Positions 3,746 through 62,217 of a stretch of 64,000 bases of DNA are shown one piece after another. Position numbers and translations under genes: made by a program. The DNA is taken from the NCBI GenBank assembly GCA_016180575.1, contig JACPAY010000005.1, forward strand, positions 3,234-67,233. The letters run 5' to 3'. Within the stretch, counting starts at the first letter, position 1; each line of letters begins with the position of its first letter. Below the pieces are notes generated by a model. That model did no database searches, had not been told where the DNA came from, and saw nothing but the letters and a program-made list of their open reading frames with translations. This stretch comes from Candidatus Omnitrophota bacterium (lineage in GTDB: Bacteria; Omnitrophota; Gorgyraeia; Aquiviventales; Aquiviventaceae).

Positions 3746-4300
3746 ATGCGCGTGGTCATCGGGATCACCGGCGCCTCGGGCGCGGTCTTCGGGGTGGACT
3801 TCCTCCGGCGCTGCCCGGCGGAGGAGAAGTACCTCATCCTGACGAAGTGGGGCCGGTACGTCCTCAAGGAGGAAACCGGGCTCACCGAGCACCACCTGGC
3901 CGAGCACGTGAAGAAGAGCTTCTCCGATGAGGACCTCGCCGCACCCTTCTCGTCCGGCTCGACGCCGTTCGATGCGCTGGTCATCCTGCCCTGCTCGGTC
4001 TCGACGATGGCGAAGATCGCCTGCGGCCTGGCCGACACGCTGCTGACGCGCGCCGCGGCGGTCGCGCTCAAGGAGCGGCGCCGGCTCATCATCGGCCTGC
4101 GGGAGACGCCGCTCTCCACGATCCACCTGGAGCAGGCGGCCAAGCTGTCGCAGGCCGGGGCGATCGTGATGCCGATCGCGCCGCCGTTCTACCACCGGCC
4201 GCAGACCATCGATGAGCTGGTGGAGCAGTTCAACGCCAAGGTCCTCAGCCTCCTCGGGTTCGAGACCGCCCTCGCCTGGAAGCCCGAAGCCCTGGAATAA
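3746..4300 (+). CDS. ubiX: UbiX-type flavin prenyltransferase (MqnL-like)
   Basis: MRVVIGITGASGAVFG N-terminus and PCSVSTMAKIA motif. SD GGAGG upstream. Confidence 0.85.
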   Translation: MRVVIGITGASGAVFGVDFLRRCPAEEKYLILTKWGRYVLKEETGLTEHHLAEHVKKSFSDEDLAAPFSSGSTPFDALVILPCSVSTMAKIACGLADTLLTRAAAVALKERRRLIIGLRETPLSTIHLEQAAKLSQAGAIVMPIAPPFYHRPQTIDELVEQFNAKVLSLLGFETALAWKPEALE

Positions 4301-4320
4301 TAGGAACCGGTCCCATTTTT
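4298..4320. repeat. Family A palindrome copy A2
   Basis: taataggaaccggtcccattttt, between ubiX and the ubiD-like gene. Confidence 0.85.
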
Positions 4321-4325
4321 CCTCG

Positions 4326-6083: not shown

Positions 6084-7159
6084 CGCAGAAGCTCCAGCAG
6101 GGCGAGCGGCTCGCGCGCGAGGAGGCCCTGGCGCTCTTTGGGACGCGCGACGTCGTCGCCCTCGGCCGCCTCGCCGGGGCGGCCAAGCGCGCGCGCTTCG
6201 GCGAGCGCGCCCACTTCGTCATCAACCGGCAGATCAATCCCTCCAACGTGTGCGTCCTCTCCTGCCGGTTCTGCGACTTCGCGACCAAGCGGGGGCGGCC
6301 CAACGCGTACGAGATGACCATCCAGGAGATCCTGGAGCGGTGCAGCCCGGAGCTGCGCGAGGTCCACATCGTCGGCGGCCTGCATCCCGACTGGCCCTGG
6401 GGTTTTTACCTTGAGATGTTCCGCGCCATAAGAACGGCCTTCCCGCAAATCCAGATCAAGGCCTGGACGGCGGTTGAGATTGACTACTTCTCGAAGAAGT
6501 TCCGCCTCAGCGTCGAGGAGGTCCTGCGGCAGCTCAAGGACGCGGGCCTCGCCGCGCTGCCGGGCGGAGGGGCGGAGGTGTTCTCGGAGCGGGTGCGCAG
6601 ATCACTCTTCCCCTTCAAGATCGGGGCGCCCCGGTGGCTTGAGATCCACCGCATCGCGCACCGCCTCGGCATCCCGACCAACGCGACGCTGCTCTACGGC
6701 CACATGGAGACGCACGAGGAGCGCGTGGACCACATGCTCAGGCTGCGCGCCCTGCAGGATGAGACGGGCGGCTTCATGAGCTTCATCCCGCTCGCCTATC
6801 AGCCCGGCAAGACCCGGGTGGTGGCCCGCCAGGCCTCCGCCCTCGAGGACCTCAAGACGGTCGCGATCGCGCGCCTGCTGCTCGACAACGTCCCGCACAT
6901 CAAGGCGTACTGGGTGACGATGGGCGAGGAGAGCGCCTCGGTGGCGCTGCAGTTCGGGGCGGACGACATCGACGGCACGATCGGGGAGGAGCGCATCATG
7001 CACGCGGCCGATGCCGCCTCGCCCGTGAGCCTGACGCGGGGACGCCTGGTGGAGCTGATCCGGGAATCCGGCTGCGTGCCGGTGGAGCGCGATGCCCTCT
7101 ATCGCACCATCCACGTGTATGACGACCACGCGCATTGCGAGAATACCGTATCTCAATAG
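6059..7159 (+). CDS. mqnE: Radical SAM enzyme, probable aminofutalosine synthase MqnE
   Basis: CVLSCRFCDFA radical-SAM cluster and CofH/MqnE-like body (GGLHPD, QDETGGF, FGADDIDGT). Adjacent to mqnA. Confidence 0.65.
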   Translation: MAAVLDRLAQKLQQGERLAREEALALFGTRDVVALGRLAGAAKRARFGERAHFVINRQINPSNVCVLSCRFCDFATKRGRPNAYEMTIQEILERCSPELREVHIVGGLHPDWPWGFYLEMFRAIRTAFPQIQIKAWTAVEIDYFSKKFRLSVEEVLRQLKDAGLAALPGGGAEVFSERVRRSLFPFKIGAPRWLEIHRIAHRLGIPTNATLLYGHMETHEERVDHMLRLRALQDETGGFMSFIPLAYQPGKTRVVARQASALEDLKTVAIARLLLDNVPHIKAYWVTMGEESASVALQFGADDIDGTIGEERIMHAADAASPVSLTRGRLVELIRESGCVPVERDALYRTIHVYDDHAHCENTVSQ

Positions 7160-7883
7160 CGCCCCCTTCTTCCAGGGGCTGGCGCTGGGGGAGCGGTATG
7201 AGCTGACGGACTGCGCCCCGCGGGCGCTCGGGGCGCAGGCGGCGGAAGGCTCGCTGCTGGCCGGCCTGATGCCGCTGGCGGACTACCTCCGCCTGGAAGA
7301 GACCTTTGAGCGGGTGGGGCGCTTCGGCATCGCGGTCCGGGGGCGCGTGCGCAGCGTCCTGCTCTTTTCACGCAAGCCGCTCCGGCAGCTTGACGGCGCC
7401 GTCATCGCCGTGACGGAGGAGACGTCCACGACGGCTGTCCTGCTGCGCCTCTTGCTCGAGCAGCGCTACCACATCAGCCCCGCCGCCTATGAGCGCGGCG
7501 AGCGCCCGGACGCCGAGGCGCTCCTCCTCATCGGGGACGCGGCGCTCAAGTTCCAGCAGCGCAACGACCAGTATCCCTTTGAGACGGACCTGGCGTTTGA
7601 GTGGTGGCTCTGGCAGCACCTGCCCTGCGTCTTCGCGGTCTGGGCCATCCGGAAGGACGCCGGCGCCGAGGAGAAGAAAGAGCTTGAGCTGGCATTGTCC
7701 AAGTCGCTGGGGATCAACCTGCGGCAGCTTGAGCGGCTGGCCCAGGACGCCTCCCCAGGGCTCGGCGTCCCGGCCGAGGCGCTGCACAGCTACCTCTCGC
7801 AGTTCACGTACCGGTTCGGGCAGCCCGAGGAGGACGGGATCGCGCAGTTCAAGAGGCTGGTCCATGAGCATCATCTGCTCTGA
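7119..7883 (+). CDS. mqnA: Chorismate dehydratase MqnA
   Basis: RIARIPYLNSAPFF N-terminus typical of MqnA (VitK2_biosynth fold). Overlaps flanking mqn genes. Confidence 0.7.
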   Translation: MTTTRIARIPYLNSAPFFQGLALGERYELTDCAPRALGAQAAEGSLLAGLMPLADYLRLEETFERVGRFGIAVRGRVRSVLLFSRKPLRQLDGAVIAVTEETSTTAVLLRLLLEQRYHISPAAYERGERPDAEALLLIGDAALKFQQRNDQYPFETDLAFEWWLWQHLPCVFAVWAIRKDAGAEEKKELELALSKSLGINLRQLERLAQDASPGLGVPAEALHSYLSQFTYRFGQPEEDGIAQFKRLVHEHHLL

Positions 7884-8976
7884 GGCGCTCGAGGAAAAGG
7901 TGCTCACCGGGACCCGCCTCTCGCGGGAGGAGGGGCTGTGGCTCTGGCAGCGGGGCGACCTCCTGGAGCTGGGTCACCTCGCCAACCAGGTGCGCCGCCG
8001 GCTGCACCCGGAGCCTGTGGTGACGTTCGTCATCGACTCCAACCCCAACTACACCAACGTCTGCGTCACCGACTGCGTTTTCTGCGCCTTCTACCGCAAG
8101 CCCGGCAGCCGCGACGGCTATACCCTGACGGTGGAGCAGGTGATGGAGAAGGTCCAACGGGCGGCGGACCAGGGCGCGACGACGGTGCTGCTCCAGGGCG
8201 GCCACAACCCCCAGATCCCCCTCGACTACTACCTCGACCTCGTGCGCGAGACCCGCAGGCGGTTCCCCCGCATCACCCCGCACTTCTTCACCGCGTCGGA
8301 GGTCACCACGATGGCGCAGGTGGCGGGCCTCTCGGTCCGCGAGGTGCTCGAGCGCCTGAAGGAGGCGGGGCAGTTCACGCTGCCCGGCGGGGGCGCCGAG
8401 ATCCTCTCGGACCGCATCCGCCGGCGGTTGAGCCCGAAGAAGGGCGGGGCGGAGGCGTGGCTCTCGGTCCATCACGAGGCGCATCGCCTTGGCTTCAAGT
8501 CGACCGCCACGATGATGTTCGGCCACATCGAGGAGGACGAGGACATCCTGGAGCACCTCGAGCACGTCCGAGCGCTGCAGGATGAGACGGGCGGCTTCAC
8601 GGCGTTCGTGCCCTGGACGTTCAAGCCGGGCAACACCCCGCTTGAGCAGCGCATCGCGCAGCACGCGGGCCCCACGCGGTACCTGCGCATGGTCGCCTTC
8701 TCGCGGCTCTACCTCGACAACGTCCCCCACGTCCAGGCCACCTGGTTCTCCGAGGGCAAGAAGACCGGCCAGATCGCCCTCCACTTCGGGGCCGACGACT
8801 TCGGCGGCACGCTGTTCGAGGAGAACGTCCACGCGGCGACCGGCTTCGTCAACAAGACCGCTGTGGAGGAGATCGTGACGCTCATCCGGGAATCCGGCTT
8901 CATCCCGGCCCAGCGCACCACCCTCTACGAGGTCCTCCGCACGTTCGAGCCGGCCGCGGCGCCGGTGAGCGGATGA
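7864..8976 (+). CDS. mqnC: Radical SAM enzyme, cyclic dehypoxanthinyl futalosine synthase MqnC
   Basis: NPNYTNVCVTDCVFCAFYR, QGGHNP, QDETGGFTAF and FGADDFGGT motifs. Confidence 0.7.
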   Translation: MSIICSEALEEKVLTGTRLSREEGLWLWQRGDLLELGHLANQVRRRLHPEPVVTFVIDSNPNYTNVCVTDCVFCAFYRKPGSRDGYTLTVEQVMEKVQRAADQGATTVLLQGGHNPQIPLDYYLDLVRETRRRFPRITPHFFTASEVTTMAQVAGLSVREVLERLKEAGQFTLPGGGAEILSDRIRRRLSPKKGGAEAWLSVHHEAHRLGFKSTATMMFGHIEEDEDILEHLEHVRALQDETGGFTAFVPWTFKPGNTPLEQRIAQHAGPTRYLRMVAFSRLYLDNVPHVQATWFSEGKKTGQIALHFGADDFGGTLFEENVHAATGFVNKTAVEEIVTLIRESGFIPAQRTTLYEVLRTFEPAAAPVSG

Positions 8977-9974
8977 TCGGCATTGAGCTGGACTGGTCCG
9001 CCATCGTGGCGCGCTCGCTGGGCGGGCAGGGCTTCACGCGCGAGGAGGCGCGGGCGATCCTCGCGCTGCCCGACGACGAGATCCCGCTGCTCCTGGCGGC
9101 CGCGTTCGCCGTCCGGAAGGCGCACTTCGGCAAGCGCGTCAAGGTGTGCATCCTCCAGAACGCCCGCAGCGGGCTCTGCCCCGAGGACTGCCACTACTGC
9201 TCGCAGTCGTCGGTGTCGGAGGCGAAGATCGACAAGTACCCGCTGATGTCCGCGGAGCAGCTGGTGGACGGGGCGCGGCGGGCGGCCGCGGGCGGGGCGA
9301 GGCGCTACTGCATGGTGACGAGCGGGCGGGGCCCGGCCGATGAGGAGATCGAGCACTTCTGCGGGGTGACGCGCGCCATCAAGCAGGAGCTGCCGGACCT
9401 TGAGATCTGCGTGTGTCTCGGGCTGCTCTCCGAGGAGCAGGCAAGGCGCTTGAAGGCGGCGGGGGTGGGCTGGGTGAACCACAACCTCAATTCAAGCGAG
9501 CGGTTCTACTCCGAATTCTGCACCACCCACACCTATCAGGACCGCGTCGAGACGGTCCGCAATGTCCGCAAGGCCGGTCTCATGACCTGCAGCGGCGGCA
9601 TCGTCGGGATGGGCGAGACGGACGAGGACATCCTGGACCTCGCCTTCGCCTGCCGCGAGCTCGGCATGGATTCGATCCCGGTCAACTTCCTCCATCCCAT
9701 CCCGGGCACCCCAATGGAGGCCCATCAGTTCCTGACGCCGATGAAGTGCCTGAAGGTGCTCTGCCTCTTCCGCCTCCTGAACCCGTCGAGCGAGATCCGG
9801 GCGGCCGGGGGGCGGGAGGTGAACCTCCGCTCGCTGCAGCCGCTGGCGCTCTACGCCGCGAATTCCATCTTCGTGGAGGGCTACCTGACGACGCCGGGCC
9901 AGCAGGGCGAGGAGGCGCGGCGGATGATCGAGGATCTTGGCTTCGAAGTCGAACCGGCGGGGAGGGGCGGATGA
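8973..9974 (+). CDS. bioB: Biotin synthase (BioB-type radical SAM)
   Basis: CPEDCHYCSQS, VNHNLNSS, CSGGIVGMGE and IRAAGGRE (the 2Fe-2S Arg region). ATGA overlap with mqnC. Confidence 0.75.
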   Translation: MIGIELDWSAIVARSLGGQGFTREEARAILALPDDEIPLLLAAAFAVRKAHFGKRVKVCILQNARSGLCPEDCHYCSQSSVSEAKIDKYPLMSAEQLVDGARRAAAGGARRYCMVTSGRGPADEEIEHFCGVTRAIKQELPDLEICVCLGLLSEEQARRLKAAGVGWVNHNLNSSERFYSEFCTTHTYQDRVETVRNVRKAGLMTCSGGIVGMGETDEDILDLAFACRELGMDSIPVNFLHPIPGTPMEAHQFLTPMKCLKVLCLFRLLNPSSEIRAAGGREVNLRSLQPLALYAANSIFVEGYLTTPGQQGEEARRMIEDLGFEVEPAGRGG

Positions 9975-10516
9975 CGAGGCGATGGGTCGTGACGACGCTG
10001 GGGAAGGACCGCCCGGGGATCGTCGCGGGGGTCACGAAGATCCTCTACCGGCTTGGCTGCAACCTCGAGGACTCGGCGATGACGCGCCTGGCCGGGGAGT
10101 TCGCCATCATGCTCATCTTCTCGGCGCCGGCCAAGGCGGCCGAGGCCGCCCTGCGGAAGGCGTTCGCGCCGCTGGAGCGGGGGCTGTCGCTGACGGTCCA
10201 TCTGAAGCCGCTGACGAAAGCGGAGATCGCTTCGCCCCGAAAGCGGGGGCGGGCCTACGTGATCTCGGTCTACGGGGCGGACCATCCCGGCATCGTGTTC
10301 CGCATCACGGACTCGCTGGCGCGCGCCGGGGTCAACATCACCGACCTGCACACGCACCGCACCGCCGGGGACGGGGCGCCGCTCTACCTGCTCCTGCTGG
10401 AAGTGGAGACCCCGCCGCGGGTCAGCGCCGCCAGGCTTGAGCGGCGCCTGCACACCCTGGCCACGACGCTGCGTGTTGAAGTCAGCTTCCGCCCCGCAGA
10501 CGCCGCCGTCCTCTAA
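9971..10516 (+). CDS. Tandem ACT-domain protein (GcvR-like)
   Basis: Two DRPGIV/DHPGIV ACT motifs. ATGA overlap with bioB. Confidence 0.65.
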   Translation: MTRRWVVTTLGKDRPGIVAGVTKILYRLGCNLEDSAMTRLAGEFAIMLIFSAPAKAAEAALRKAFAPLERGLSLTVHLKPLTKAEIASPRKRGRAYVISVYGADHPGIVFRITDSLARAGVNITDLHTHRTAGDGAPLYLLLLEVETPPRVSAARLERRLHTLATTLRVEVSFRPADAAVL

Positions 10517-10576
10517 TCGGGGACAGCCACTAATTTCCCTATGGCAGACTCAAGGAAATCAGTGGCTGTCCCCGAT
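10515..10576. repeat. Family C inverted repeat copy C1 (arm AATCGGGGACAGCCACTAATTTCC)
   Basis: 24-nt arms with one mismatch and a 14-nt loop. Overlaps the ACT-gene stop and the def start. Confidence 0.9.
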
Positions 10577-11071
10577 TTTTCCATCCGGCGGTTTCCGGAC
10601 CCCCTCCTCAAGCAGCCGACGCGCCGCGTGGACCGCGTGGACGACCGCATCCGGGCGCTGATCGACGCGATGGTGCGGACGATGCGCCATCACCCCCGCT
10701 GCGTGGGCCTGGCAGCCCCCCAGGTCGGCCGCGGCCTGCGCATCGCGGTGATGGACGCCTCCCGGCACCCCAAGGCCGCGGCGAGCCTCGGCCTGCTCGT
10801 CCTCGTCAACCCGCAGATCCTGGAGCGCGAGGGCAGCCTGCTGCAGCGGGAAGGGTGTCTCTCCGTCCCGGACTTCACCGGCAACGTCCCGCGCGCGTCG
10901 CGCGTGCGCCTGGCAACCTGGGACCGGGCGGGCTCCGCGATGGAGCTTGAGCTGGAGGGGTTCGAGGCGGTCATCGCGCAGCACGAGGTGGACCATCTCG
11001 ACGGGACGCTGTTCCTGGACCGCGTCGCCAACCTCGCCACCGATGTCTTCAAGCGGAAAACCTACCTGTGA
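10541..11071 (+). CDS. def: Peptide deformylase
   Basis: GLAAPQVG, EGCLSVP and HEVDHLDG motifs. Both candidate starts (ATG 10541, GTG 10562) lie inside element C1. Confidence 0.85.
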   Translation: MADSRKSVAVPDFSIRRFPDPLLKQPTRRVDRVDDRIRALIDAMVRTMRHHPRCVGLAAPQVGRGLRIAVMDASRHPKAAASLGLLVLVNPQILEREGSLLQREGCLSVPDFTGNVPRASRVRLATWDRAGSAMELELEGFEAVIAQHEVDHLDGTLFLDRVANLATDVFKRKTYL

Positions 11072-11080
11072 AGAAGGCGT

Positions 11081-11164
11081 GTGAGTCACAAAGTCACAAG
11101 GTCACAAAGTCACACGTGTGACCTTGTGACCGCGTGGTAGTCTCCAGTGTGTGACCCTGCGACC
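11081..11164. repeat. Family D: inverted arrays of GTCACAA(R)/(Y)TTGTGAC 8-mers, copy D1
   Basis: Four forward units, then two plus two reverse units split by a 16-nt spacer. Lies between convergent def and mqnD. Confidence 0.85.
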
Positions 11165-12820: not shown

Positions 12821-13597
12821 ATGACCCGCGCTGAACGGCTGCGCGTCTTCCAGCGGCGGCTCCTGCGCTGGTACCAGCGCCACCAGCGCGACCTCCCCTG
12901 GCGCAAGACGCGCGACCCGTACCGGATCCTCGTCTCCGAGGTGATGCTCCAGCAGACGCAGGTGGAGCGGGTCGTGCCCAAGTACCGCGAGTTCCTCCGG
13001 CGCTACCCGACCCTCGCGTCGCTGGCCCGGGCCCGGGTCGCGGAGCTGCGGAGGGTCTGGTATCCGCTCGGCTACAATGTCCGCCCGCTGCGCCTGCGCC
13101 GGATCGCGCAGCGCGCGCTGCGGGAGCACGACGGCCGCATCCCGGATTCGTACGACGGGCTGCTGGCGATGGACGGGATCGGCCGCTACACCGCGGGCGC
13201 TGTGCTGAGCTTCGCGTTCAAGCGCGACGCGCCCATTGTGGACACGAACGTCGCCCGATTGCTCTCGCGGTACTTCGGGCGGCCGAGGCGAGAGGGCCGG
13301 GCGGCTGCCCAGCACCGCCTCTGGCGCCTGGCGGAGGCGGTGATCCCGCCCGGGAAGGGCTATCTGATCAACCAGGCGCTCATGGACTTCGGGGCGGTCG
13401 TCTGCACCGCGCGCGCCCCGCGCTGTGGTTCCTGCGTCCTGCGCCGAAGCTGCCGCAGCTATCCATTCATAGGACCGCGGGTGACGCAGAGCCGGGGACC
13501 CCGTCGCCTGCCCGCAGGCGAAGGCCGAGGACAGCCGACGGGGTGGCGGCGCGGCAGGACCCGCGGTCCAATCGCTCATGCTGCGAAGGCGCCCTAG
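12821..13597 (+). CDS. mutY: A/G-specific adenine glycosylase / EndoIII-family HhH-GPD glycosylase (no MutY C-terminal domain)
   Basis: DPYRILVSEVMLQQTQV, HhH GIGRYTAGAV and the C-x6-C-x2-C-x5-C cluster. The last ~35 codons are encoded by repeat core E3. Confidence 0.8.
   Translation: MTRAERLRVFQRRLLRWYQRHQRDLPWRKTRDPYRILVSEVMLQQTQVERVVPKYREFLRRYPTLASLARARVAELRRVWYPLGYNVRPLRLRRIAQRALREHDGRIPDSYDGLLAMDGIGRYTAGAVLSFAFKRDAPIVDTNVARLLSRYFGRPRREGRAAAQHRLWRLAEAVIPPGKGYLINQALMDFGAVVCTARAPRCGSCVLRRSCRSYPFIGPRVTQSRGPRRLPAGEGRGQPTGWRRGRTRGPIAHAAKAP
13472..13569 (+). repeat. Family E core copy E3 with different termini (GGACCGCGGG / CCCGCGGTCC)
   Basis: Core tgacgcagagccgggga...ggtggcggcgcggcagga is nearly identical to the E2 core. 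It lies inside the 3' coding end of the mutY-like gene. Confidence 0.8.
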
Positions 13598-20746: not shown

Positions 20747-22065
20747 CGGGGGCGGCCCTCGCGCTCCGAGAGCCAATAGAGCGGCAGGCCGACGGCGAGC
20801 AGCACGAACCCGAACGCGGCGTCGGCAGGCTGCTTGATGCAGACATCCGCGATGAACCCGGCGATGACGAGGCAGAACACCAGCGGCGTCCAGGGGTAGC
20901 CCCAGGCGCGGTATGGCCGGGGCGCTTTCGGCCGCAGGCGCCGCAGGCGCACGACGCCGAAGACCGCCAGGATGAAGAAGACCGAGATGACGACGGTGGA
21001 GTAGGTCATGATCTGCTCGAACGTCTTGGTGAAGACCAGGCCCACCGCGATGGCCGCGTTCGCCCACAGCGCCGTCGCCGGCGTGTGAAAGCCGGGGTGC
21101 ACGGTGCCGAGGCGCCCGAAGAGCGCGTGGTCCTTGCCCAGGGCGTAGAGGATGCGGCCGCCGGTGAGGATGTAGCCGTTGAGCGCCCCGAACGCGGAGC
21201 AGGCGATCATGCCGGCGATGAACGCCGCCCCCGCCCCGCCCCACAGCCGCTCCATCACGCTGGCGGCGACCAGCGGCGTGCGCACCAGCTCGTCCATCGG
21301 GATGGCGAGGAGGTAGCTCGCGTTCACCAGCAGGTAGAGCACGGTGACGCCCGCGACCCCCAGGATGATGGCCCGCGGCACGTTGCGGGTGGGCTGCCTC
21401 ACCTCCTCGGCGACGTAGGCCGCCTCCGTCCACCCGCCGTAGGTCCACAGCACGAAGACGAATGCCACGCCGAGCGACTGGAGCACCGGCACGTCAAGCC
21501 GCGGCATGGTCCAGTCCAGCGCCACCGCCTGCCGCGAGGCCAGAATGGTGAGGCCCGCCGCGACCAGCGAAACGAGCGCGCCGATCTTCAGGACGGTGAA
21601 GACGTTCTGCACGTACTTGCCCCACCGGACCCCGACGACGTTCACCGCGGTGAGCAGCAGGATGGCCCCTGCCGCCACCCATCGCAGCGCCCCGTTCCCG
21701 TAGGGGAGGAGGCGGCCGCCGTACTCGGCGAAGACGAACCCGAGGATCGCGATGGTGCCGGTGCGCTCGATGAACAGCTTCGTCCAGCCGAACAGGAACC
21801 CCCAGAACCTGCCGTAGACTTCGCGGATGTAGACGTAGTCGCCGCCGCTGGCCGGGAACATGGCGGCGAGCTCCGCGTAGCAGAGCGCGCCGCACAGCGA
21901 CACGACGCCCCCCACGAGCCACAGCAAGAGGAAGAGGGCGGGGGAAGGGACGTGGCCGGCGATGGCGCTGGCGGTCCGGAAGATCCCCACCCCCACGATG
22001 CAGCCCACCACGAGCATCGAGGCGTCGAACAGCCCGAGCGACCGAACTAACGCAGGTTTGTTCAT
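20743..22065 (-). CDS. APC-family amino acid permease
   Basis: 12-TM pattern with CYAELAAMFPASGGDYVY. ATGA overlap with cstA. Confidence 0.85.
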   Translation of the reverse strand: MNKPALVRSLGLFDASMLVVGCIVGVGIFRTASAIAGHVPSPALFLLLWLVGGVVSLCGALCYAELAAMFPASGGDYVYIREVYGRFWGFLFGWTKLFIERTGTIAILGFVFAEYGGRLLPYGNGALRWVAAGAILLLTAVNVVGVRWGKYVQNVFTVLKIGALVSLVAAGLTILASRQAVALDWTMPRLDVPVLQSLGVAFVFVLWTYGGWTEAAYVAEEVRQPTRNVPRAIILGVAGVTVLYLLVNASYLLAIPMDELVRTPLVAASVMERLWGGAGAAFIAGMIACSAFGALNGYILTGGRILYALGKDHALFGRLGTVHPGFHTPATALWANAAIAVGLVFTKTFEQIMTYSTVVISVFFILAVFGVVRLRRLRPKAPRPYRAWGYPWTPLVFCLVIAGFIADVCIKQPADAAFGFVLLAVGLPLYWLSEREGRPR

Positions 22066-22070
22066 CCGGG

Positions 22071-22131
22071 GCCACAACGTCACAGGGTCACACGTCACAT
22101 GCGACCTTGTGACATGTGACTCTGTGACACC
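22071..22131. repeat. Family D copy D2
   Basis: gccacaacgtcacagggtcacacgtcacatgcgaccttgtgacatgtgactctgtgacacc, between vanY-like and the permease gene. Confidence 0.8.
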
Positions 22132-24194: not shown

Positions 24195-25892
24195 ATGGAC
24201 CGGCACGAGCAGCGCGTCGTTCGCTTTCTCTCCAAGCCCTCCGCCTATCCGCATCGCGCGCCCGCCGTGGCGCGGCGGGAGACGCACGTCTCGCACGTTT
24301 TCCTGGCCGGCCCGTTCGCCTATAAGCTCAAGAAGCCGGTGAAGTTTCCGTTCCTCGATGCCTCCACGCTGGCCAGGCGCCGGCGGTTCTGCGGGCTGGA
24401 GCTCTCGCTCAACCGCCGCCTGGCGCCGGCGGTCTACCTGGGCATGGTGCCGATTGTGGAGACGCCGGCGGGGCTGCGCCTCGGTCCCTCGACTCGGCCT
24501 TCGGCCTCGCTCGGGACGTCGCCCGGACGCGACGGGGCGGGGCTCCGCGGGCACGAACGGATCATCGAGTGGGTGGTGAAGATGCGCCGCCTGCCGGAGG
24601 AGCGGATGCTGGACCAGGTGGTCGCCCGCCGGCAGCTGACCAGGGGCGACATGCTCCGCATCGCGGACCGGCTCAGCCGGTTCTTCCGGCGCGCCGCGCG
24701 GGGCCCCGCCATCGCCCGCTACGGCGCCCCGGACCAGGTGGCCGCGCTGGTCCTGGGCAACCTGGACGAGTGCCGGCCGTTCGTCGGCCGACTCTTCTCG
24801 GAGTCCGACCACCTGTTCCTCAAGGCGGCCTACCGCCAGTACCTGGCGCTCCACGAGCCGCTGCTGGCGCGGCGCGCGCGCGAGGGCCGGATCATCGATG
24901 GCCACGGCGACCTGCGGTGCGAGAACATCTGCCTGCCTGCCGCGCCGAAACGAGGAATGAAGCGTGGCGCGGCGCAGGCAGGCCTGACCAGTCCGGTCAT
25001 CTTCGACTGCGTGGAGTTTCAGCCGGCGTTCCGGTGCGGGGACATGGCCAACGATTTCAGCTTCCTCGTCATGGACCTGGAATTCCGCGGACGAGCCGAC
25101 CTGGCCGACGCCCTGGTCGCCGGGTACCGGCGCCGCCTGGGCGATGCGACCCTCGCGCAGGTCCTCCCGTTCTACAAGTGCCACCGCAGCCTCGTGCGCG
25201 GCAAGGTGCGGGCCCTGGCGTGGTCCCAGCACCCGCGCACGGCGCGGGGCCGGCGCGTGCGCGCGCTCTCCCGCCGCCACTTCCAGCTTGCGGCGCGCTA
25301 TGCACGAGCCTTCGCCCCGCCGCGGCTCGTGGCGGTCGGCGGGCTGATCGGCACCGGCAAGAGCACGCTCGCCCGCGCGCTGGCCCAGGCGCTGGGGGCC
25401 TCCTGGCTGCGCACCGACGAGATCCGGCTGCGCGAGTTCGCGCGCGCCAAGCGGCGCGGGCAGGGCTTCGCCCAAGGCCTCTACGCCCCGCACATCTCGG
25501 AGCTGGTGTACCGGCGGCTGCTCCGGCGGGCCGAGACCCTGGTGCGCGAGGGGGGCTCGGTCATCTGCGACGGGACGTTTTCGAAGGCCGCGGGGAGGGC
25601 GGCGCTGCGCGAGATCGCCAGGCGGCACGGTGGTTCGTTTCACTTCTTCGAGTGCGTGGTCCCCCGCGCGGTGGCCCTGCGCCGGGTGGCCAGGCGCTAC
25701 GCCGCGCGCGCGGATCTTTCGGAGGCGCGGCCGGAGCACTACGACCGGCTGCGGGCCGGCTTTGAGCCCCGCCCTCGGCGGGGCTGGCCGCGCCGGGACT
25801 GGACCCGGCTCTCCGACAACCGCGCGCCCCAGGCGACCGCGGCGGCCGCGCTGGCGGCGCTGCGGCGCGCATGGTCTCAATTTGGCGGGTGA
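24195..25892 (+). CDS. Bifunctional APH-like kinase domain / P-loop (AAA_33-like) ATP-binding protein
   Basis: HGDLRCENI..FDCVEF kinase motif and C-terminal GLIGTGKSTLA Walker A. Contains in-frame hairpin insert H1. The last codons and the stop come from element E1. Confidence 0.7.
   Translation: MDRHEQRVVRFLSKPSAYPHRAPAVARRETHVSHVFLAGPFAYKLKKPVKFPFLDASTLARRRRFCGLELSLNRRLAPAVYLGMVPIVETPAGLRLGPSTRPSASLGTSPGRDGAGLRGHERIIEWVVKMRRLPEERMLDQVVARRQLTRGDMLRIADRLSRFFRRAARGPAIARYGAPDQVAALVLGNLDECRPFVGRLFSESDHLFLKAAYRQYLALHEPLLARRAREGRIIDGHGDLRCENICLPAAPKRGMKRGAAQAGLTSPVIFDCVEFQPAFRCGDMANDFSFLVMDLEFRGRADLADALVAGYRRRLGDATLAQVLPFYKCHRSLVRGKVRALAWSQHPRTARGRRVRALSRRHFQLAARYARAFAPPRLVAVGGLIGTGKSTLARALAQALGASWLRTDEIRLREFARAKRRGQGFAQGLYAPHISELVYRRLLRRAETLVREGGSVICDGTFSKAAGRAALREIARRHGGSFHFFECVVPRAVALRRVARRYAARADLSEARPEHYDRLRAGFEPRPRRGWPRRDWTRLSDNRAPQATAAAALAALRRAWSQFGG
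24932..24982 (+). repeat. Family H intragenic hairpin insert H1 (51 nt, in frame)
   Basis: cctgcctgccgcgcc-16 nt-ggcgcggcgcaggcagg inside the kinase-like ORF, translated LPAAPKRGMKRGAAQAG. Confidence 0.75.
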
Positions 25893-25980
25893 CGCGGAGC
25901 CGGGGGCCCCGCCGCCCGCCCGCAGCGCAGCGAGGACGGCCGGCGGGGTGGCACAGCGGCAGGCCCCGCCAAATTGAGAC
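25874..25980 (+). mobile_element. Family E MITE-like element copy E1 (16-nt TIR GTCTCAATTTGGCGGG, GC-rich ~75-nt core)
   Basis: TIRs at 25874-25889 and 25965-25980. The left TIR encodes SQFGG plus the stop of the kinase-like gene. Confidence 0.85.
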
Positions 25981-26024
25981 AGTACCGCGCCTGGCTGGCT
26001 CGGACGTGACTCCCCGGCCAGGTG

Positions 26025-26554: not shown

Positions 26555-26998
26555 TTGCTCCGCATCGACGGGCACAGCATGGCGCCGGTCCTAAAGGCCG
26601 GCGAGCTCGTCGTGGTCGAGGAGGGCGCGTACGCCTCCGCCGCACCCCGGCGGGGCGACGTGGTGGCGGCGCGCCCCGCGGCGCTGGGCGGCCGGGCGTG
26701 CGTCAAGCGCGTCGCCGGCCTCCCGCATGAGCGGGTGCGGGTCGGCGAGCGGGAGTGGCGGCTTGAGGAGGGGCAGTTCTTCCTCCTCGGCGACCGCGCG
26801 GAGGACAGCCTGGACTCCCGTGCCTTCGGCCCGGTCCCGCGCGAGGAGCTGCTCGGCCCGGTGCGCAAAATCGGGACCGGTTCCATTTTTCATCGCATCA
26901 GGCTGTTGGCGACGATGATGCGCGGGCGCGACAGCGGCGCCGCGGCGCGGGGCCGGGCGGCTTCCCCATTGTGTAACGAAAGCGGCCCTGGCATGTGA
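26555..26998 (+). CDS. sodX: S26-type NiSOD maturation protease SodX
   Basis: GHSMAPVL catalytic Ser motif and KRVAGLPHE. Needs the TTG start at 26555 to retain the Ser. The C-terminal tail reads through element A3. Confidence 0.65.
   Translation: MLRIDGHSMAPVLKAGELVVVEEGAYASAAPRRGDVVAARPAALGGRACVKRVAGLPHERVRVGEREWRLEEGQFFLLGDRAEDSLDSRAFGPVPREELLGPVRKIGTGSIFHRIRLLATMMRGRDSGAAARGRAASPLCNESGPGM
26867..26890. repeat. Family A palindrome copy A3 (inside the sodX 3' coding region)
   Basis: aaaatcgggaccggttccattttt, translated as KIGTGSIFH. Confidence 0.8.
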
Positions 26999-29231: not shown

Positions 29232-29349
29232 ACTCTCGAAACGGCAAACTTCCCGCAAGGGAGGGACGCAAAGCCGCGGGTCCTGGTGCCTGGCTCTTCG
29301 CGAAGCGAAGTGCCTGGCACCGGAAGGATAGCCGGGCTACCGAAAGAGG
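29232..29349 (+). promoter_or_regulatory. c-di-GMP-I (GEMM-I) riboswitch
   Basis: ACGGCAAAC-[ttccc GCAA gggag hairpin]-GGGACGCAAAGCC-[long P2 hairpin ggtgcc..ggcacc]-AAGGATAGCCGGGCTACCGA matches the order and conserved blocks of the Vc2-type aptamer as I recall them. Ends at the ATG of the DUF948-like gene. Confidence 0.75.
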
Positions 29350-29990: not shown

Positions 29991-30053
29991 AATCGGGGAC
30001 AGCCACTAATTTCCTAGTGGTGGCCGAAGGGAAATTAGTGGCTGTCCCCGATT
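29991..30053. repeat. Family C inverted repeat copy C2
   Basis: Perfect 24-nt arms at 29991-30014 and 30030-30053. Confidence 0.9.
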
Positions 30054-30098
30054 GTTTCCCGATTGTTTCCCCAATTGTTGGCGATTGTTTGCTATAAT
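30049..30098 (+). promoter_or_regulatory. Four tandem 11-bp iterons (CGATTGTTTCC x2, CCAATTGTTGG, CGATTGTTTGC) abutting a TATAAT box
   Basis: Iterons at 30049-30092; TATAAT at 30093-30098. The first iteron overlaps the end of element C2. Confidence 0.6.
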
Positions 30099-46332: not shown

Positions 46333-46357
46333 ACAAACTAATTCGTCAAGGCGCCCA

Positions 46358-46385
46358 GAAAAAATAGGAACCGGTACCGTTTTTC
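46358..46385. repeat. Family A palindrome copy A5
   Basis: gaaaaaataggaaccggtaccgtttttc, in the marR / IMPase divergent region directly upstream of TACAAT. Confidence 0.8.
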
Positions 46386-47188: not shown

Positions 47189-48491
47189 GTTCGCCTTCCC
47201 GGACGGCTTCCTCTGGGGCAGCGCCACCTCCGCCCACCAGGTCGAGGGGGACAACGTCCACAGCGACTGGTGGGCGTGGGAGCAGGCCGGCCGCGTGAAG
47301 GAGCCCTCCGGGCTCGCCTGCGACCACTACCGGCGCTTCGCGCAGGATTTCGACCTCGCAGCGGAGCTGGGACACAACGCGCACCGCTTCTCGGTTGAGT
47401 GGAGCCGCCTCGAGCCCGCGGAGGGCCGGTGGGACGAGGCGGCGCTTGCGCACTACGTCGAGGTGGTGCGCGCGCTCCGCGCGCGGCGCCTGGAGCCGAT
47501 CGTGACGCTCCACCACTTCACCACCCCCCAATGGTTCGCCTTGCGGGGCGGATGGGTGCGGCCGGACTCGGTGGAGGCCTTCGCGCGGTATGTCCGCCGG
47601 GTCGCCGCGGCGCTGGGCGATTCGGTCCGGTACTGGGTCACCATCAACGAGCCGATGGTCTATGTCCGGATGCATTACATTCAGGGATTGGGCCCGCCCG
47701 GCGCCCGCGACCTCCCGCAGGCGCTCCGCGTCATCGAGCATCTCATCCGCGCCCACGCGGCCGCCTACCGCGTGCTGCACGGCGCGCGCCGCGGGCCAGG
47801 CCCGGCCCCGCAGGTCAGCGTCGCCCATCACGCCCCCGCCTTCGGGCCGTGCCGGCGGTGGTGGCCGCCGGACCGCTGGATGGCCGCGCGGACCGACCGC
47901 GTGTTCAACTGGGCGCTCCTCGAGGCGCTGACCGAGGGCCGGTGGGTCGTGCCCGGAGTGGGGAAGTGGCGCATCCCGGAGGCCGCAGCGACGCTCGACT
48001 ATGTCGGCGTGAACTTCTACGGGCGGCAGTTCATCCAGTGGGCCCCCGCGGCGGGCGCGTGGCCCGGCGCGAGCTGCGACCTGGGACACCATCCGCGGGA
48101 GGTCACCGAGCGCACCTCGTACGGCTGGGATGTGCACCCGGCCTCCTTCGTGCAGGTCCTCTCGCGCATCGGGCGGATGGGGCGGCCGATCCTCGTGACG
48201 GAAAACGGCACCTACATGCAGGACGACGCCAGGCGCTGGGACTTCATCCTGCGCCACGTGCAGGCGATGGCGCGCGCGTTCCAGCAGGGCGCGCGGATCA
48301 TCGGCTACTGCTACTGGTCGCTCCTCGACAACTTTGAGTGGGCGGATGGGTTCGGCCCGCGCTTCGGCCTGGCGGAGGTGGACTACGCGACCCAGCGGCG
48401 GACCATCCGAGACAGCGGCCGCCGGTACGCGGAGATCTGCCGCGCCAACCGCGTGGAAATCGGGGACATGGAAATCGGGGACAGCCACTAA
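47181..48491 (+). CDS. GH1 beta-glucosidase
   Basis: FLWGSATSAHQVEG, TINEP (acid/base) and VTENG (nucleophile) motifs. The last ~10 codons and the stop are encoded by element C3. Confidence 0.85.
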   Translation: MPEFAFPDGFLWGSATSAHQVEGDNVHSDWWAWEQAGRVKEPSGLACDHYRRFAQDFDLAAELGHNAHRFSVEWSRLEPAEGRWDEAALAHYVEVVRALRARRLEPIVTLHHFTTPQWFALRGGWVRPDSVEAFARYVRRVAAALGDSVRYWVTINEPMVYVRMHYIQGLGPPGARDLPQALRVIEHLIRAHAAAYRVLHGARRGPGPAPQVSVAHHAPAFGPCRRWWPPDRWMAARTDRVFNWALLEALTEGRWVVPGVGKWRIPEAAATLDYVGVNFYGRQFIQWAPAAGAWPGASCDLGHHPREVTERTSYGWDVHPASFVQVLSRIGRMGRPILVTENGTYMQDDARRWDFILRHVQAMARAFQQGARIIGYCYWSLLDNFEWADGFGPRFGLAEVDYATQRRTIRDSGRRYAEICRANRVEIGDMEIGDSH

Positions 48492-48544
48492 TTTGCGAAT
48501 GGGAACAATTGTGTCCAGGCTTAAATTAGTGGCTGTCCCCGATT
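48455..48544. repeat. Family C inverted repeat copy C3 with 15-nt tandem duplication of the left end
   Basis: ggaaatcggggacat/ggaaatcggggacagccactaattt ... aaattagtggctgtccccgatt. Confidence 0.85.
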
Positions 48545-48548
48545 GTTG

Positions 48549-50990: not shown

Positions 50991-51004
50991 GCGGCCAAGG
51001 TGCT

Positions 51005-51116
51005 GTCTCAATTTGGCGGGTCCTGCCGCGCCGCCACCCCGCCGGCTGTCCTCGGCCTCCTGGCCTGCGGGCAGGCGGCGGGGGCCTCGGCTCCGCGTCA
51101 CCCGCCAAATTGAGAC
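51005..51116 (-). mobile_element. Family E MITE-like element copy E2 (inverted relative to E1)
   Basis: TIRs at 51005-51020 and 51101-51116. The reverse complement of the core aligns with the E1 and E3 cores. Confidence 0.85.
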
Positions 51117-51220
51117 ACGACCGCGGCCAAACCGGGGTTGAACGCCGTGCGGGGCTCTGCTAAACTGAACATGTGAACTCGGTCGCGACTTTGGGTGCGG
51201 AACGGACAGGGAGGTGCGGG

Positions 51221-56990: not shown

Positions 56991-57090
56991 GTCACAAAGT
57001 CACACAGAGGAGAAGCTGCACGCGGTCACAATGTCACATGGCTTCATGGCCAGTCCACCTTGTGACTTTGTGACCTTGTGACTTTGTGAC
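56991..57090. repeat. Family D copy D3
   Basis: 2+2 forward units and 4 reverse units (cttgtgactttgtgaccttgtgactttgtgac), between nuoD and nuoI. Confidence 0.85.
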
Positions 57091-57108
57091 TTCATAGGAG
57101 TATCTGCA

Positions 57109-59002: not shown

Positions 59003-60775
59003 ATGACATCGCAGCCTGGGGACTCTCCAGCCCGCGTCGCGGCCTCGGAGCCGGCCGCTATCGAGTGGGAGCGCAAGCCGAAGACGATCGACGCCAACCT
59101 CAAGGACTACGACGCCGCCTACAAGGGCTTCGACTGGAAATCGGTCGAGCGGGAGTTCGACTGGTCGAAGACGGGGAAGGTGAACGTGGTCCATGAGGCG
59201 GTGGACCGCCACGCCGCCTCCCCGCGCAAGGACAAGCTCGCGCTCGCCTTCACCGACTTCGCGGGCCGGGATGAGCGCTGCACCTTCCAGGACCTCAAGC
59301 GGCTCACGAGCCGCTTCGCCCACGCGCTGCGGCAGCTCGGCGTGAAGAAGGGCGACCGCGTGGGGACGTTCCTGCCGCGCACGCCCGAACTCTACATCGC
59401 GATCCTCAGCATCAACCGCATCGGCGCCATCCCCGTGCCGCTCTTCGAAGCGTTCATGGAGCAGGCGGTCGAGGACCGGCTGGGGGACAGCGAGGCGGTC
59501 GCCTGCGTCACCTCGCCCGCCCTGAAGGGCCGCATCCCGCTCAAGAAGCTGCCGAAGCTCAAGCGGCTCATCCTCGTCGGCGCCTCCGGCGCGCTCGCCC
59601 CCAACGAGGCGAGCTACGAGCAGGCCACCGCCAACGCCCCGGATTGGGTGGAGCCGGAGTGGCTCACTGTTGACGACGGCCTCGTCATCCACTACACCTC
59701 AGGCTCCACGGGAAAGTCCAAGGGGGCGCTCCACCGCCAGTACGCGATGGTCGGCCACTACCAGACGAGCAAGTGGGCGCTCGACCTGCGGGATGACGAC
59801 GTGTACTGGTGCACGGCGGATCCTGGGTGGGTGACCGGCACCTCCTACGGCATCTACGGTCCCTGGACGCTGGGGATCTCGAGCGTCGTGATCGGCGGCC
59901 GCTTCGACCCGGACCGGTGGTACGAGACCATCCAGCGCTACAAGGTCACGATGTGGTACAGCGCGCCCACCGCCTACCGCATGCTCATGTCCGCGGGCGA
60001 GGCCATCCCGAAGAAGTACGACCTCAAGAGCCTGCGCCACATCTGCAGCGTCGGCGAGCCGCTCAATCCGGAGGCGCTGAAGTGGGTCAAGAAGATCACG
60101 GGCCTGGCGCCCCATGAGACCTGGTGGATGACCGAGACCGGCATGCAGCTCATCTGCAACTATCGGAGCAAAGATTTCCCCATCGGGTGCACGGGCAAGC
60201 CGTTCCCGGGCACCTACGCGACGGTGGTGAACGACCAGGGCAGGGAGCTGCCGCCGGGCGAGCTCGGCCACCTCGTCGTCAAGCCGGGCTGGCCGTCGAT
60301 GATGAAGGAGATCTGGCGAAACCCCGTCAAGTATCAGGAGTACTTCCGCATCCCCGGCTGGTATGTGAGCGGCGACAGCGCGTACCGGGACGAGCAGGGC
60401 TACCTCTGGTACCAGGGAAGGGCGGACGACGTCATCAAGACGGCGGGCGAGCGCGTGGGGCCGTTCGAGGTCGAAAGCGCCCTCGTCGCGCACCCGGCGG
60501 TGGCCGAGGCGGGGGTGATCGGCAAGCCCGACCCGGTGCGCGGGCACATCATCAAGGCCTTCGTCTCGCTGCGCAAGGGCCACCAGCCCTCGGAGCAGCT
60601 CAAGCAGGACATCGCCGACTTCGTGAAGAACAACCTTGCGGCCCACGCCGCCCCGCGCGAGATCGCGTTCGTGGACAAGGTGCCCAAGACCCGGTCGGGG
60701 AAGATCATGCGCCGCGTCCTGCGCGCCTGGGACCTCGGCCAGCCCGTCGGCGACATCTCGACGATGGAAGAATGA
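59003..60775 (+). CDS. acs: AMP-forming acetyl-CoA synthetase family ligase
   Basis: YTSGSTGKSKG AMP motif, WWMTETG, SGDSAYRDEQGY and PKTRSGKIMRR motifs. Confidence 0.8.
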   Translation: MTSQPGDSPARVAASEPAAIEWERKPKTIDANLKDYDAAYKGFDWKSVEREFDWSKTGKVNVVHEAVDRHAASPRKDKLALAFTDFAGRDERCTFQDLKRLTSRFAHALRQLGVKKGDRVGTFLPRTPELYIAILSINRIGAIPVPLFEAFMEQAVEDRLGDSEAVACVTSPALKGRIPLKKLPKLKRLILVGASGALAPNEASYEQATANAPDWVEPEWLTVDDGLVIHYTSGSTGKSKGALHRQYAMVGHYQTSKWALDLRDDDVYWCTADPGWVTGTSYGIYGPWTLGISSVVIGGRFDPDRWYETIQRYKVTMWYSAPTAYRMLMSAGEAIPKKYDLKSLRHICSVGEPLNPEALKWVKKITGLAPHETWWMTETGMQLICNYRSKDFPIGCTGKPFPGTYATVVNDQGRELPPGELGHLVVKPGWPSMMKEIWRNPVKYQEYFRIPGWYVSGDSAYRDEQGYLWYQGRADDVIKTAGERVGPFEVESALVAHPAVAEAGVIGKPDPVRGHIIKAFVSLRKGHQPSEQLKQDIADFVKNNLAAHAAPREIAFVDKVPKTRSGKIMRRVLRAWDLGQPVGDISTMEE

Positions 60776-60799
60776 AAAACGGGACCGGGTCCCTTTTTT
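60775..60799. repeat. Family A palindrome copy A7
   Basis: aaaaacgggaccgggtccctttttt, starting at the last base of the acs TGA stop. Confidence 0.85.
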
Positions 60800-60817
60800 C
60801 CACCGTTGGCCGATCAG

Positions 60818-60842
60818 AAAAAATGGACCCGGTCCCAATTTT
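60818..60842. repeat. Family A palindrome copy A8
   Basis: aaaaaatggacccggtcccaatttt, supplying the tlpA-like start codon. Confidence 0.85.
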
Positions 60843-61350
60843 GCTTTCGCTGCTTGTTCTCGCCGGCTGCGGCCAGCAGGGGATCGGCGCCGATTGGAAA
60901 CGCATCGAGCCCGGCGTCGCCGCGATCGACTTCGAGCTGCCGCAGCTCGACGGCCCGCCGGTGAAGCTGTCGGACTACCGGGGCCGCGTCGTCGTCATGG
61001 AATTCTGGGCGACCTGGTGCGGCCCCTGCCGGTTTTCACTTCCATCGCTTGAGGTCATCTACAAGCGGTACCGCGACCGAGGGATGACCGTCCTCTTGAT
61101 CAATGAGGGGGAAGAGGCCGAAGTGGCGCGGAAATGGGCGGAGAAGCGGTTCACGGCTCCTATCCTCCTGGACCGGGACCAGGCGGTCGGCGCGCGCTAC
61201 CGCGTGCGCGGCATCCCGCGGCTCTTCATCGTGGACCAGGCGGGGAACCTGGCGTATGCGCATGAAGGCTACGGCGGGGGGCTTGAGCGGAACCTCACGC
61301 TGATCCTCGATGAGTTCCTGGCGCCCCCCGCACCCGCCGCAGATGGCTGA
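60823..61350 (+). CDS. TlpA/ResA-like thioredoxin-fold lipoprotein
   Basis: Lipobox LAGC and WATWCGPC motif. The ATG and first ~7 codons lie inside element A8. Confidence 0.8.
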   Translation: MDPVPILLSLLVLAGCGQQGIGADWKRIEPGVAAIDFELPQLDGPPVKLSDYRGRVVVMEFWATWCGPCRFSLPSLEVIYKRYRDRGMTVLLINEGEEAEVARKWAEKRFTAPILLDRDQAVGARYRVRGIPRLFIVDQAGNLAYAHEGYGGGLERNLTLILDEFLAPPAPAADG

Positions 61351-61756: not shown

Positions 61757-62145
61757 GCGGCGACGGAGCGCTCCGTCTCCCACACCCGGACGCAGGTGAC
61801 CGGAAAGCCCTGGGAGGCGGCGTGCTCGAAGATCAGCCGGGCGATCGCCTCGGCGGTCGGGTTGTCGTCGAGCAGGAAGACCGGCTCATGCCGCTCCCGC
61901 AGGAGCGGCGCCACCGGATCGTCGCGGTGCAGCAGCATCTTGTGGTCCAGCTCCTGGTCGATCCACGCCTGCACCACCCGCTTGATCTCGTCGAAATCCC
62001 GCACCATCCCCCTGCGGTCCAGCGTCCGGCTGCTCAGCTCGATCTCGACCTTCCCGTTGTGCCCGTGCAGGTAGCGGCACTTGCCCTGATAGTTCAGGAG
62101 CCGGTGGCCGTAGCAGAACTCGATAACTTTGGTAACTGCATACAT
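61660..62145 (-). CDS. queD: 6-carboxy-5,6,7,8-tetrahydropterin synthase
   Basis: FCYGHRL...C..LHGHN motif of the PTPS/QueD family. Confidence 0.85.
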   Translation of the reverse strand: MYAVTKVIEFCYGHRLLNYQGKCRYLHGHNGKVEIELSSRTLDRRGMVRDFDEIKRVVQAWIDQELDHKMLLHRDDPVAPLLRERHEPVFLLDDNPTAEAIARLIFEHAASQGFPVTCVRVWETERSVAAYRPDAAVRRRPRAGRRAARRRAAARSISTAA

Positions 62146-62148
62146 GGC

Positions 62149-62207
62149 GTCACAAGGTCACAAGGTCACAAGGTCACATGTGACGTGTGACGCTGTGACG
62201 TTGTGAC
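62149..62207. repeat. Family D copy D4 (most regular)
   Basis: gtcacaag x3 + gtcaca | tgtgac gtgtgac gctgtgac gttgtgac, starting 4 nt from the queD ATG. Confidence 0.9.
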
Positions 62208-62217
62208 CCACAATGGG

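Follow-up and report, generated by a model that had tools for sequence, protein, structure and literature searches.

The bacterial MITEs that derive from DDE transposons, such as MITEAba12, the Correia element of Neisseria and the QMITE of Coxiella, are short sequences of ~100-170 bp that possess inverted repeats, a target-site duplication of fixed length and no ORF. They are dispersed in many copies through spacers and gene ends, fold as long hairpins, and can rewrite the C-terminus of a gene. MITEs are also typically AT-rich, according to a review of these elements (PMC10969869). Base composition aside, these features are shared by a family of repeats, here called the E family, that has three copies (E1, E2 and E3) in a 64-kb stretch of Omnitrophota DNA of 69% G+C, hereafter referred to as the window. 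Unlike the described MITEs, the E family is most conserved in its interior rather than at its ends, combines one interior with at least two unrelated end types (giving 8- or 9-bp duplications), and also occurs without IS-like ends; furthermore, it is very GC-rich, and neither the window nor ~450 kb of related loci yielded a parent IS.

Other known systems resemble the E family in part. IS1 and IS6/IS26, the likely source of the ends of E1 and E2, share with them the GGnnnTG termini and the 8-bp duplication, but E1 and E2 lack a transposase gene. The IS6/IS26 family moves by cointegrate formation, and such a route would be unusual for a MITE. The REP, REPIN and BIME sequences of Proteobacteria are likewise imperfect palindromes with conserved asymmetries, many intergenic copies, nesting at the tip and a modular mosaic of hairpins. 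However, REPs lack the classical transposon ends and duplications seen in the E1/E2-type copies and in a second class of E elements, while the E family has no GTAG-type head and a longer unit (75-130 nt). Finally, E3 recalls the Rickettsia palindromic elements in that a palindromic repeat sits in frame in a gene, here one whose product, a DNA glycosylase, gains 34 residues; of the three window copies, however, just this one is in frame, which is no more than the one-in-three chance would give, and both the host clade and the sequence are unrelated.

Taken as a whole, the E family is judged to be a genuine new MITE family with a mosaic architecture. It is well documented and recently active, and it belongs to Omnitrophota, a phylum known almost entirely from metagenomes and whose mobile elements have barely been described. 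Its members are likely to be non-coding DNA transposons moved by a DDE transposase encoded elsewhere, with the conserved core acting as a portable module and not as an RNA gene. The coordinates of the window copies are collected in Table 1.

Table 1. Positions in the window of the three E elements, their parts and the adjoining sites.
Feature	Position	Strand	Sequence	Remarks
E3, 102-bp insertion	13469..13570	+		absent from syntenic relative L093
E3 conserved core	13477..13564	+		nhmmer E 4e-8 and 6e-7
E1 left target-site duplication copy	25867..25874	.	GCGCATGG	
E1, E2-type MITE without first 7 nt (GGTnnTG)	25875..25986	+		
E1 conserved core	25885..25969	+		nhmmer E 2e-8 and 3e-9
E1 right target-site duplication copy	25987..25994	.	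GCGCCTGG	8 bp
Displaced relic of native AAA_33 last codons	25995..26009	+	CTGGCTCGGACGTGA	encodes LART*
DsbD-like stop codon	50988-50990			
E2 left target-site duplication copy	50991..50998	.	GCGGCCAA	8 bp; directly after DsbD-like stop
E2, complete MITE, 124 bp	50999..51122	-		core on minus strand; recovered by a generic finder of inverted repeats and duplications
E2 left terminal inverted repeat	50999..51020	+	GGTGCTGTCTCAATTTGGCGGG	GGnnnTG-type end
E2 conserved core	51016..51105	-		nhmmer E 7e-9 and 1e-6
E2 right terminal inverted repeat	51101..51122	-	GGTCGTGTCTCAATTTGGCGGG	minus-strand reading
E2 right target-site duplication copy	51123..51130	.	GCGGCCAA	8 bp, perfect

The three window copies are spaced 12-25 kb from one another among housekeeping genes and occur in both orientations. 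A reading of the window from its sequence only had described E1 and E2 as MITE-like, with a perfect terminal repeat in common, and this description is borne out: the 16-mer GTCTCAATTTGGCGGG occurs exactly four times in the window, without mismatch and at all four ends (25874 and 51005 on the plus strand; 25965 and 51101 on the minus strand), whereas 0.69 matches would be expected by chance even with up to three mismatches allowed. The claim that the two copies share an inverted core is likewise upheld, their interiors aligning in opposite orientation over 57 nt at 91% and 56 nt at 89% identity. In addition to the inverted repeats, the MITE-like character is evident from the target-site duplications, the multiple copies, the empty sites found for all three window copies, and the lack of coding capacity, which had also been proposed; the ORFs that cross the elements are simply the tails of flanking genes.

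E2 is a true MITE insertion of fairly recent date, with ends of the IS1- or IS6-like type. Its inverted repeats are 22 bp long, begin with GGTnnTG and agree with one another at 20 of 22 positions, and the two copies of its 8-bp duplication are identical. The element had earlier been delimited as 51005-51116, with 16-nt inverted repeats; while the shared 16-mer is real, the repeat is 22 nt and the element reaches six bases further out. Read on the minus strand, the core of E2 runs GCGGG-TGACGCGGAGCCG..CCCCGCCGCCTGCCCG, then a short apex, then GAGGACAGCCGGCGGGGTGGCGGCGCGGCAGGA-CCCGC. The element lies between a gene for a DsbD-like thioredoxin protein and one for a PG_binding_1 lipoprotein, and two relatives with the same gene pair (L129 and L131, with DsbD protein identities of 88% and 85%, respectively) possess the empty site, i.e., a single GCGGCCAG / GCGG without the element. 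Short-read contigs that encode the identical DsbD protein all terminate within the E2 repeat, as is expected of a multi-copy sequence.

Just downstream of the E2 insertion point (51138-51175) lies a promoter-like motif, TTGAAC-N17-TAAACT/TAGACT, that a simple promoter scan missed and that is kept in L129 and L131, both of which are without E2. The landing spot of E2 consists of the few bases separating the upstream stop codon from this motif.

E1 is an old, one-ended, decayed sibling of E2. Its right end (…GAGACAGTACC, ending at 25986) is intact and is followed by its copy of the duplication; on the left side, the other copy directly adjoins TCTCAATTT, and the terminal GGTnnTG of the element is therefore missing. 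Because of this loss, E1 is probably immobile. The corresponding empty site is seen in a relative (L132, 81% identity), where one GCGCGTGG is followed directly by CTGGCTCGG. The insertion has replaced the C-terminus of a kinase-like protein: the AAA_33 ORF (24195-25892) takes its final residues, SQFGG, and its TGA stop (25890-25892) from E1, and ends in …RRAWSQFGG* as opposed to …RRAWLARA* in L132, in agreement with the prediction that E1 donates the last five codons and the stop. Both the E1 and E2 insertions postdate the split of this lineage from relatives at 81-88% protein identity.

The third copy, E3, had been noted as a copy at 13472 with its terminal repeats swapped, and it does carry the core of E1 and E2 between different arms (GGACCGCGGG/CCCGCGGTCC). 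In full, these arms read AT(A/T)GGACCGCGGG / CCCGCGGTCCA, and any duplication is no longer than 2 bp (AT). According to Pfam assignments, E3 adds 34 codons, in frame, to the C-terminus of an HhH-GPD glycosylase gene and ends 7 nt upstream of the ATG of a NUDIX gene at 13578. In L093, a syntenic contig with a 94%-identical glycosylase, E3 is absent and the glycosylase and NUDIX genes overlap by 26 nt. The 102 extra bases of the window relative to L093 include both arms, and the arms therefore travel with E3. This empty site also rules out the notion that a bare core had landed in pre-existing palindromes, thereby mimicking covariation. Similarly, E3 did not split a fused MutY gene, as the homologues are stand-alone glycosylases of ~230 aa, each with a separate, overlapping NUDIX gene.

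The window itself belongs to a 'Candidatus Omnitrophica bacterium' MAG, to which its proteins match at 100%. Outside the window, when one genome per species was scanned with a pattern, three high-GC Omnitrophota/Omnitrophica MAGs (L019, L021 and L025) were the only ones with true copies, and a scan of metagenomes gave 57 loci, six of which were judged to be chance matches. Profile searches with the core halves added two further, more divergent copies and one more in a close relative. Together, the three MAGs and the metagenomes provide ~43 distinct sequences among the complete copies, in a sample that is biased by exact-pattern retrieval. Among viral contigs there were chance matches to the short pattern only, with the 5' half of the core absent, and plasmids gave one weak, irrelevant match. 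Many contigs break within E elements, which is to say that these repeats fragment short-read assemblies of their host genomes; metagenomic contigs may, moreover, be chimeric at repeats, and too much should not be read into a single hybrid copy such as L036.

Across copies, the elements measure 100-170 bp and share a common layout. From the outside inward, a variable outer stem is followed by GCGGG-TGACGCGGAGCCG-RGGN-CCCCGCCGCCYGCCCG and a variable apex of 10-60 nt, after which come GAGGACRG(CCG)GCGGGG-TGG-CGCAGCGGC-AGGM-CCYGC and, once more, the variable outer stem. The core halves have a mean pairwise identity of 92-94%, the invariance of the 3' half being inflated because part of it was fixed by the search pattern, as opposed to ~34% in the outer arms. 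The G-U wobble offered by CCTGC was considered as a strand marker and set aside, since it is equally readable as a bulged T and probably represents one variant passed on by descent.

At least three kinds of shell carry this core. The first has GGnnnTG ends and an 8-bp duplication that is perfect in E2, L051, L053, L062 and L068 and matches at 7/8 positions in three more copies; the second has TGCTCTGTCGAAAA ends and a 9-bp duplication, perfect in L058 and L080 and 7/9 in L050, L021 and L091; and the remaining, E3-like shells have short arms unique to each copy, with, in E3, a duplication of at most 2 bp. No shell was seen without the core, which argues against the core having simply nested itself in MITEs that were already there. 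For the GGnnnTG class, a generic finder of inverted repeats and duplications returned only core-containing elements with 8-bp duplications. Several apex types accompany each shell class, and shell class, apex type and small core variants are found in many combinations. The hairpin CCGCCAA-N6-TTGGCGG, absent from the window, forms the tip of many E copies and also stands alone, in the manner of a REP-type unit, in intergenic DNA of contigs that carry E copies (L043 4175-4194, L044 12931-12950 and L055 3055-3074). In a relative, the core of one E copy is interrupted in its 3' half by a nested insertion of 52 nt (TCCCTCGACTTCGCTCGGGACCGTGGTGAGCGAGCATCGTGAGTCGAACCAC). The shuffled shells and apices, the stand-alone apex hairpin and this nested insertion show the family to be a mosaic of palindromic modules. 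At the locus of the nested-insertion copy, a sister assembly has lost ~100 nt of the element between two short GGCGGG repeats; the sequences compared for the insertion and this deletion are L128 1890-2110, L130 130-350 and L129 1990-2100.

As to the source of the ends, IS1 elements duplicate 8-9 bp of their target. GGnnnTG termini are common to the IS1 and IS6/IS26 families, the latter of which duplicates 8 bp (PMC6807381). Within the IS1 family, the ends of ISKpn14 begin with GGTGATG and GGTAATG and the duplication is 9 bp (PMC10569121), while in the IS5 family the ends of IS903B begin with GGCTTTGTTGAATAAATC and give 9-bp repeats (PMC10569121, PMC9769513). The GGnnnTG ends and 8-bp duplication of the E1/E2 type agree with those of IS1 or IS6/IS26 and would point to a transposase of one of these two families. 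Of 14 positions compared, the class-1 ends agree with the right end of ISKpn14 at 7-10 and with the IS26 end at 7-9, a similarity that is suggestive but by which IS1 and IS6/IS26 are not separable. The family of the transposase is deduced from the ends and duplication only, because the window and the ~450 kb of related loci yielded neither an autonomous element nor a matching transposase; tblastn of the window and these loci with approximate queries for the IS26 and IS1 transposases likewise returned nothing.

The proposed mechanism is thus one in which a DDE transposase encoded elsewhere in the genome would cut or copy, and paste, the E elements. The core, an imperfect palindrome of ~75 nt, would serve as the movable interior of a superfamily of mosaic repeats that belongs to high-GC Omnitrophota, with interchangeable apical hairpins presumably carried at its tip. 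Its conservation may stem from shared descent, from module exchange by recombination or nested insertion, and from selection acting on the element, in which, for instance, the rod-like hairpin would bring the two element ends together. The sequence-only reading had suggested that the core is the selected unit; as a description, the statement that the core is the conserved unit stands, given the 92-94% versus ~34% identities, the unrelated ends and the different duplication lengths. As for the cause, element-level explanations are favored over a host RNA function, and the main alternative is a REPIN-like unit recognized by a protein.

Under that alternative, which is a tentative possibility, the core would be an independently mobile or recognized palindrome whose single-stranded DNA fold is bound by a HUH/RAYT-like enzyme or a host factor; the shells would be secondary, and the E3 type would be the basic form. 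The E3-type copies, lacking IS-like ends and with a duplication of 2 bp or less, are compatible with it, the more so as E3 is nonetheless a clean insertion that includes its own arms, and several copies possess short, unique and perfectly complementary arms. Every copy retains the asymmetric internal loops (TGA.., RGGN / TGG, AGGM), and the smaller hairpin occurs both alone and at the core's tip, where it is nested as in mosaics of the BIME type. The 8- or 9-bp duplications of E1, E2 and the class-2 copies, however, speak against REP/REPIN membership for these elements, and some apparently bare copies are decayed class-2 elements (e.g., L054/L082 and L058b). There is, moreover, no conserved flanking tetranucleotide: a TTCA motif at the left border of bare copies was considered as a target, but with three cases only it was weak and was dropped. 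Nor do the two strands differ in folding (18 versus 25 copies; Wilcoxon p=0.39).

A related but doubtful reading is that the core is a functional portable hairpin, of single-stranded DNA or RNA, that is bound by a specific protein and has been repeatedly captured or exchanged by unrelated shells, to the benefit of the carrier element or the host. The near-invariance of the core across species-level genomes, with arms and apex replaced, is stronger than usual for MITE interiors and may reflect selection on the sequence itself for a function; a putative protein-binding or single-stranded-DNA role is possible. The sole unusual aspect of the family is this pairing of one interior with different transposon ends. 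If real selection lies behind the shared interior, the E family would offer a tractable case for learning what MITE interiors are for, and were the portable-hairpin reading true, it would mean selection on the core sequence and a natural sharing of cargo among MITEs moved by different transposases.

The remaining biological explanation, also raised by the sequence-only reading, is that the core is a structured RNA (an sRNA or a cis-acting element) selected for a function in the host or element and merely spread by the transposon shells. This is unlikely. Each window copy does fold as a very stable, long rod hairpin (z -5 to -9 relative to shuffled versions), and the sequence is conserved across shells and genomes. 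The closing stem, likewise, varies yet stays paired: both sides have changed in 19 of the 23 pairs of the outer helix, as counted in an anchored, N-padded alignment with the variable apex replaced by a placeholder (AAAA), which was used because MAFFT misaligned the apex in full elements. Such covariation is expected, however, since the arms belong to different transposon shells, the ends of which pair with each other. Of the 22 pairs in the three core helices, 18 are invariant and two show a compensatory change, in a sample biased by the search pattern; the near-invariance leaves almost no covariation signal and is uninformative about structure. The helix next to the apex also stays paired in pattern-independent copies, through an inserted A-T pair in L058b and changes from G-C to AT/TA in L043b, and a Y-R pair is swapped between window copies with its pairing kept. 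A DNA palindrome could likewise keep its pairing through template switching between its arms.

Further observations weigh against an RNA gene. Rfam (15), searched at gathering and at permissive thresholds (E up to 5-10), holds no relevant match for the element. Both strands fold equally well, and a crude GC3-based gene caller gave no orientation preference relative to flanking genes (7 sense and 10 antisense), with two further copies between convergent genes and none between divergent genes. A scan for promoter-like or terminator-like sites found none at E1 or E2, and one copy tolerates the 52-nt insertion inside its core. ARAGORN found no tRNA or tmRNA, and the resemblance of the 3' half of the core to a tRNA acceptor/D-arm is superficial only. 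By eye, neither the K-turn nor the integron attC definition fits the sequence; in the case of attC, the outer arms are variable and are not R''/R' boxes (GTTRRRY), and the copies are dispersed in both orientations without a cassette array.

Lastly, that the similarity reflects chance GC-rich palindromes or an assembly artefact is exceedingly improbable: GC-rich DNA such as that of the window yields many spurious hairpins, but four exact 16-mers where fewer than one is expected, dozens of copies in independent assemblies, precise target duplications and clean empty sites stand against it, and the empty-site comparisons have already refuted it.

The window holds several other repeats and features of note. 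A second family of palindromic repeats, ~66-75 bp long with the form AATCGGGGACAGCCACTAATTTCC … GGAAATTAGTGGCTGTCCCCGATT, is present at 10515-10580, 29991-30056 and 48473-48547 with 80-100% identity and is probably a second MITE-like family. Tandem 8-mers (GTCACAAG / GTCACAAA) form partly palindromic arrays at 11077-11126, 22063-22113, 56991-57095 and 62141-62209, some pairs of sites being 93-100% complementary, and similar GTGACnAGT arrays flank E copies in L044, L058 and L066. Short GGGAACCGGTCCC-type hairpins (family D3), with A-runs on one side and T-runs on the other, are found at 548-580, 4289-4321, 26859-26891, 46353-46385 and 60768-60843 and look like bidirectional intrinsic terminators. 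A c-di-GMP-I-GGC riboswitch aptamer (RF03167) lies on the plus strand at 29234-29345, scoring 62.9 bits against a gathering score of 59. Finally, two adjacent paralogous genes, ~1.8 kb apart at 6111-9090, share several stretches of 45-133 nt at 65-76% identity (families D4-D6 and D18), a pattern suggestive of an old tandem duplication beside the VitK2_biosynth (futalosine-pathway) gene of the syntenic contig.
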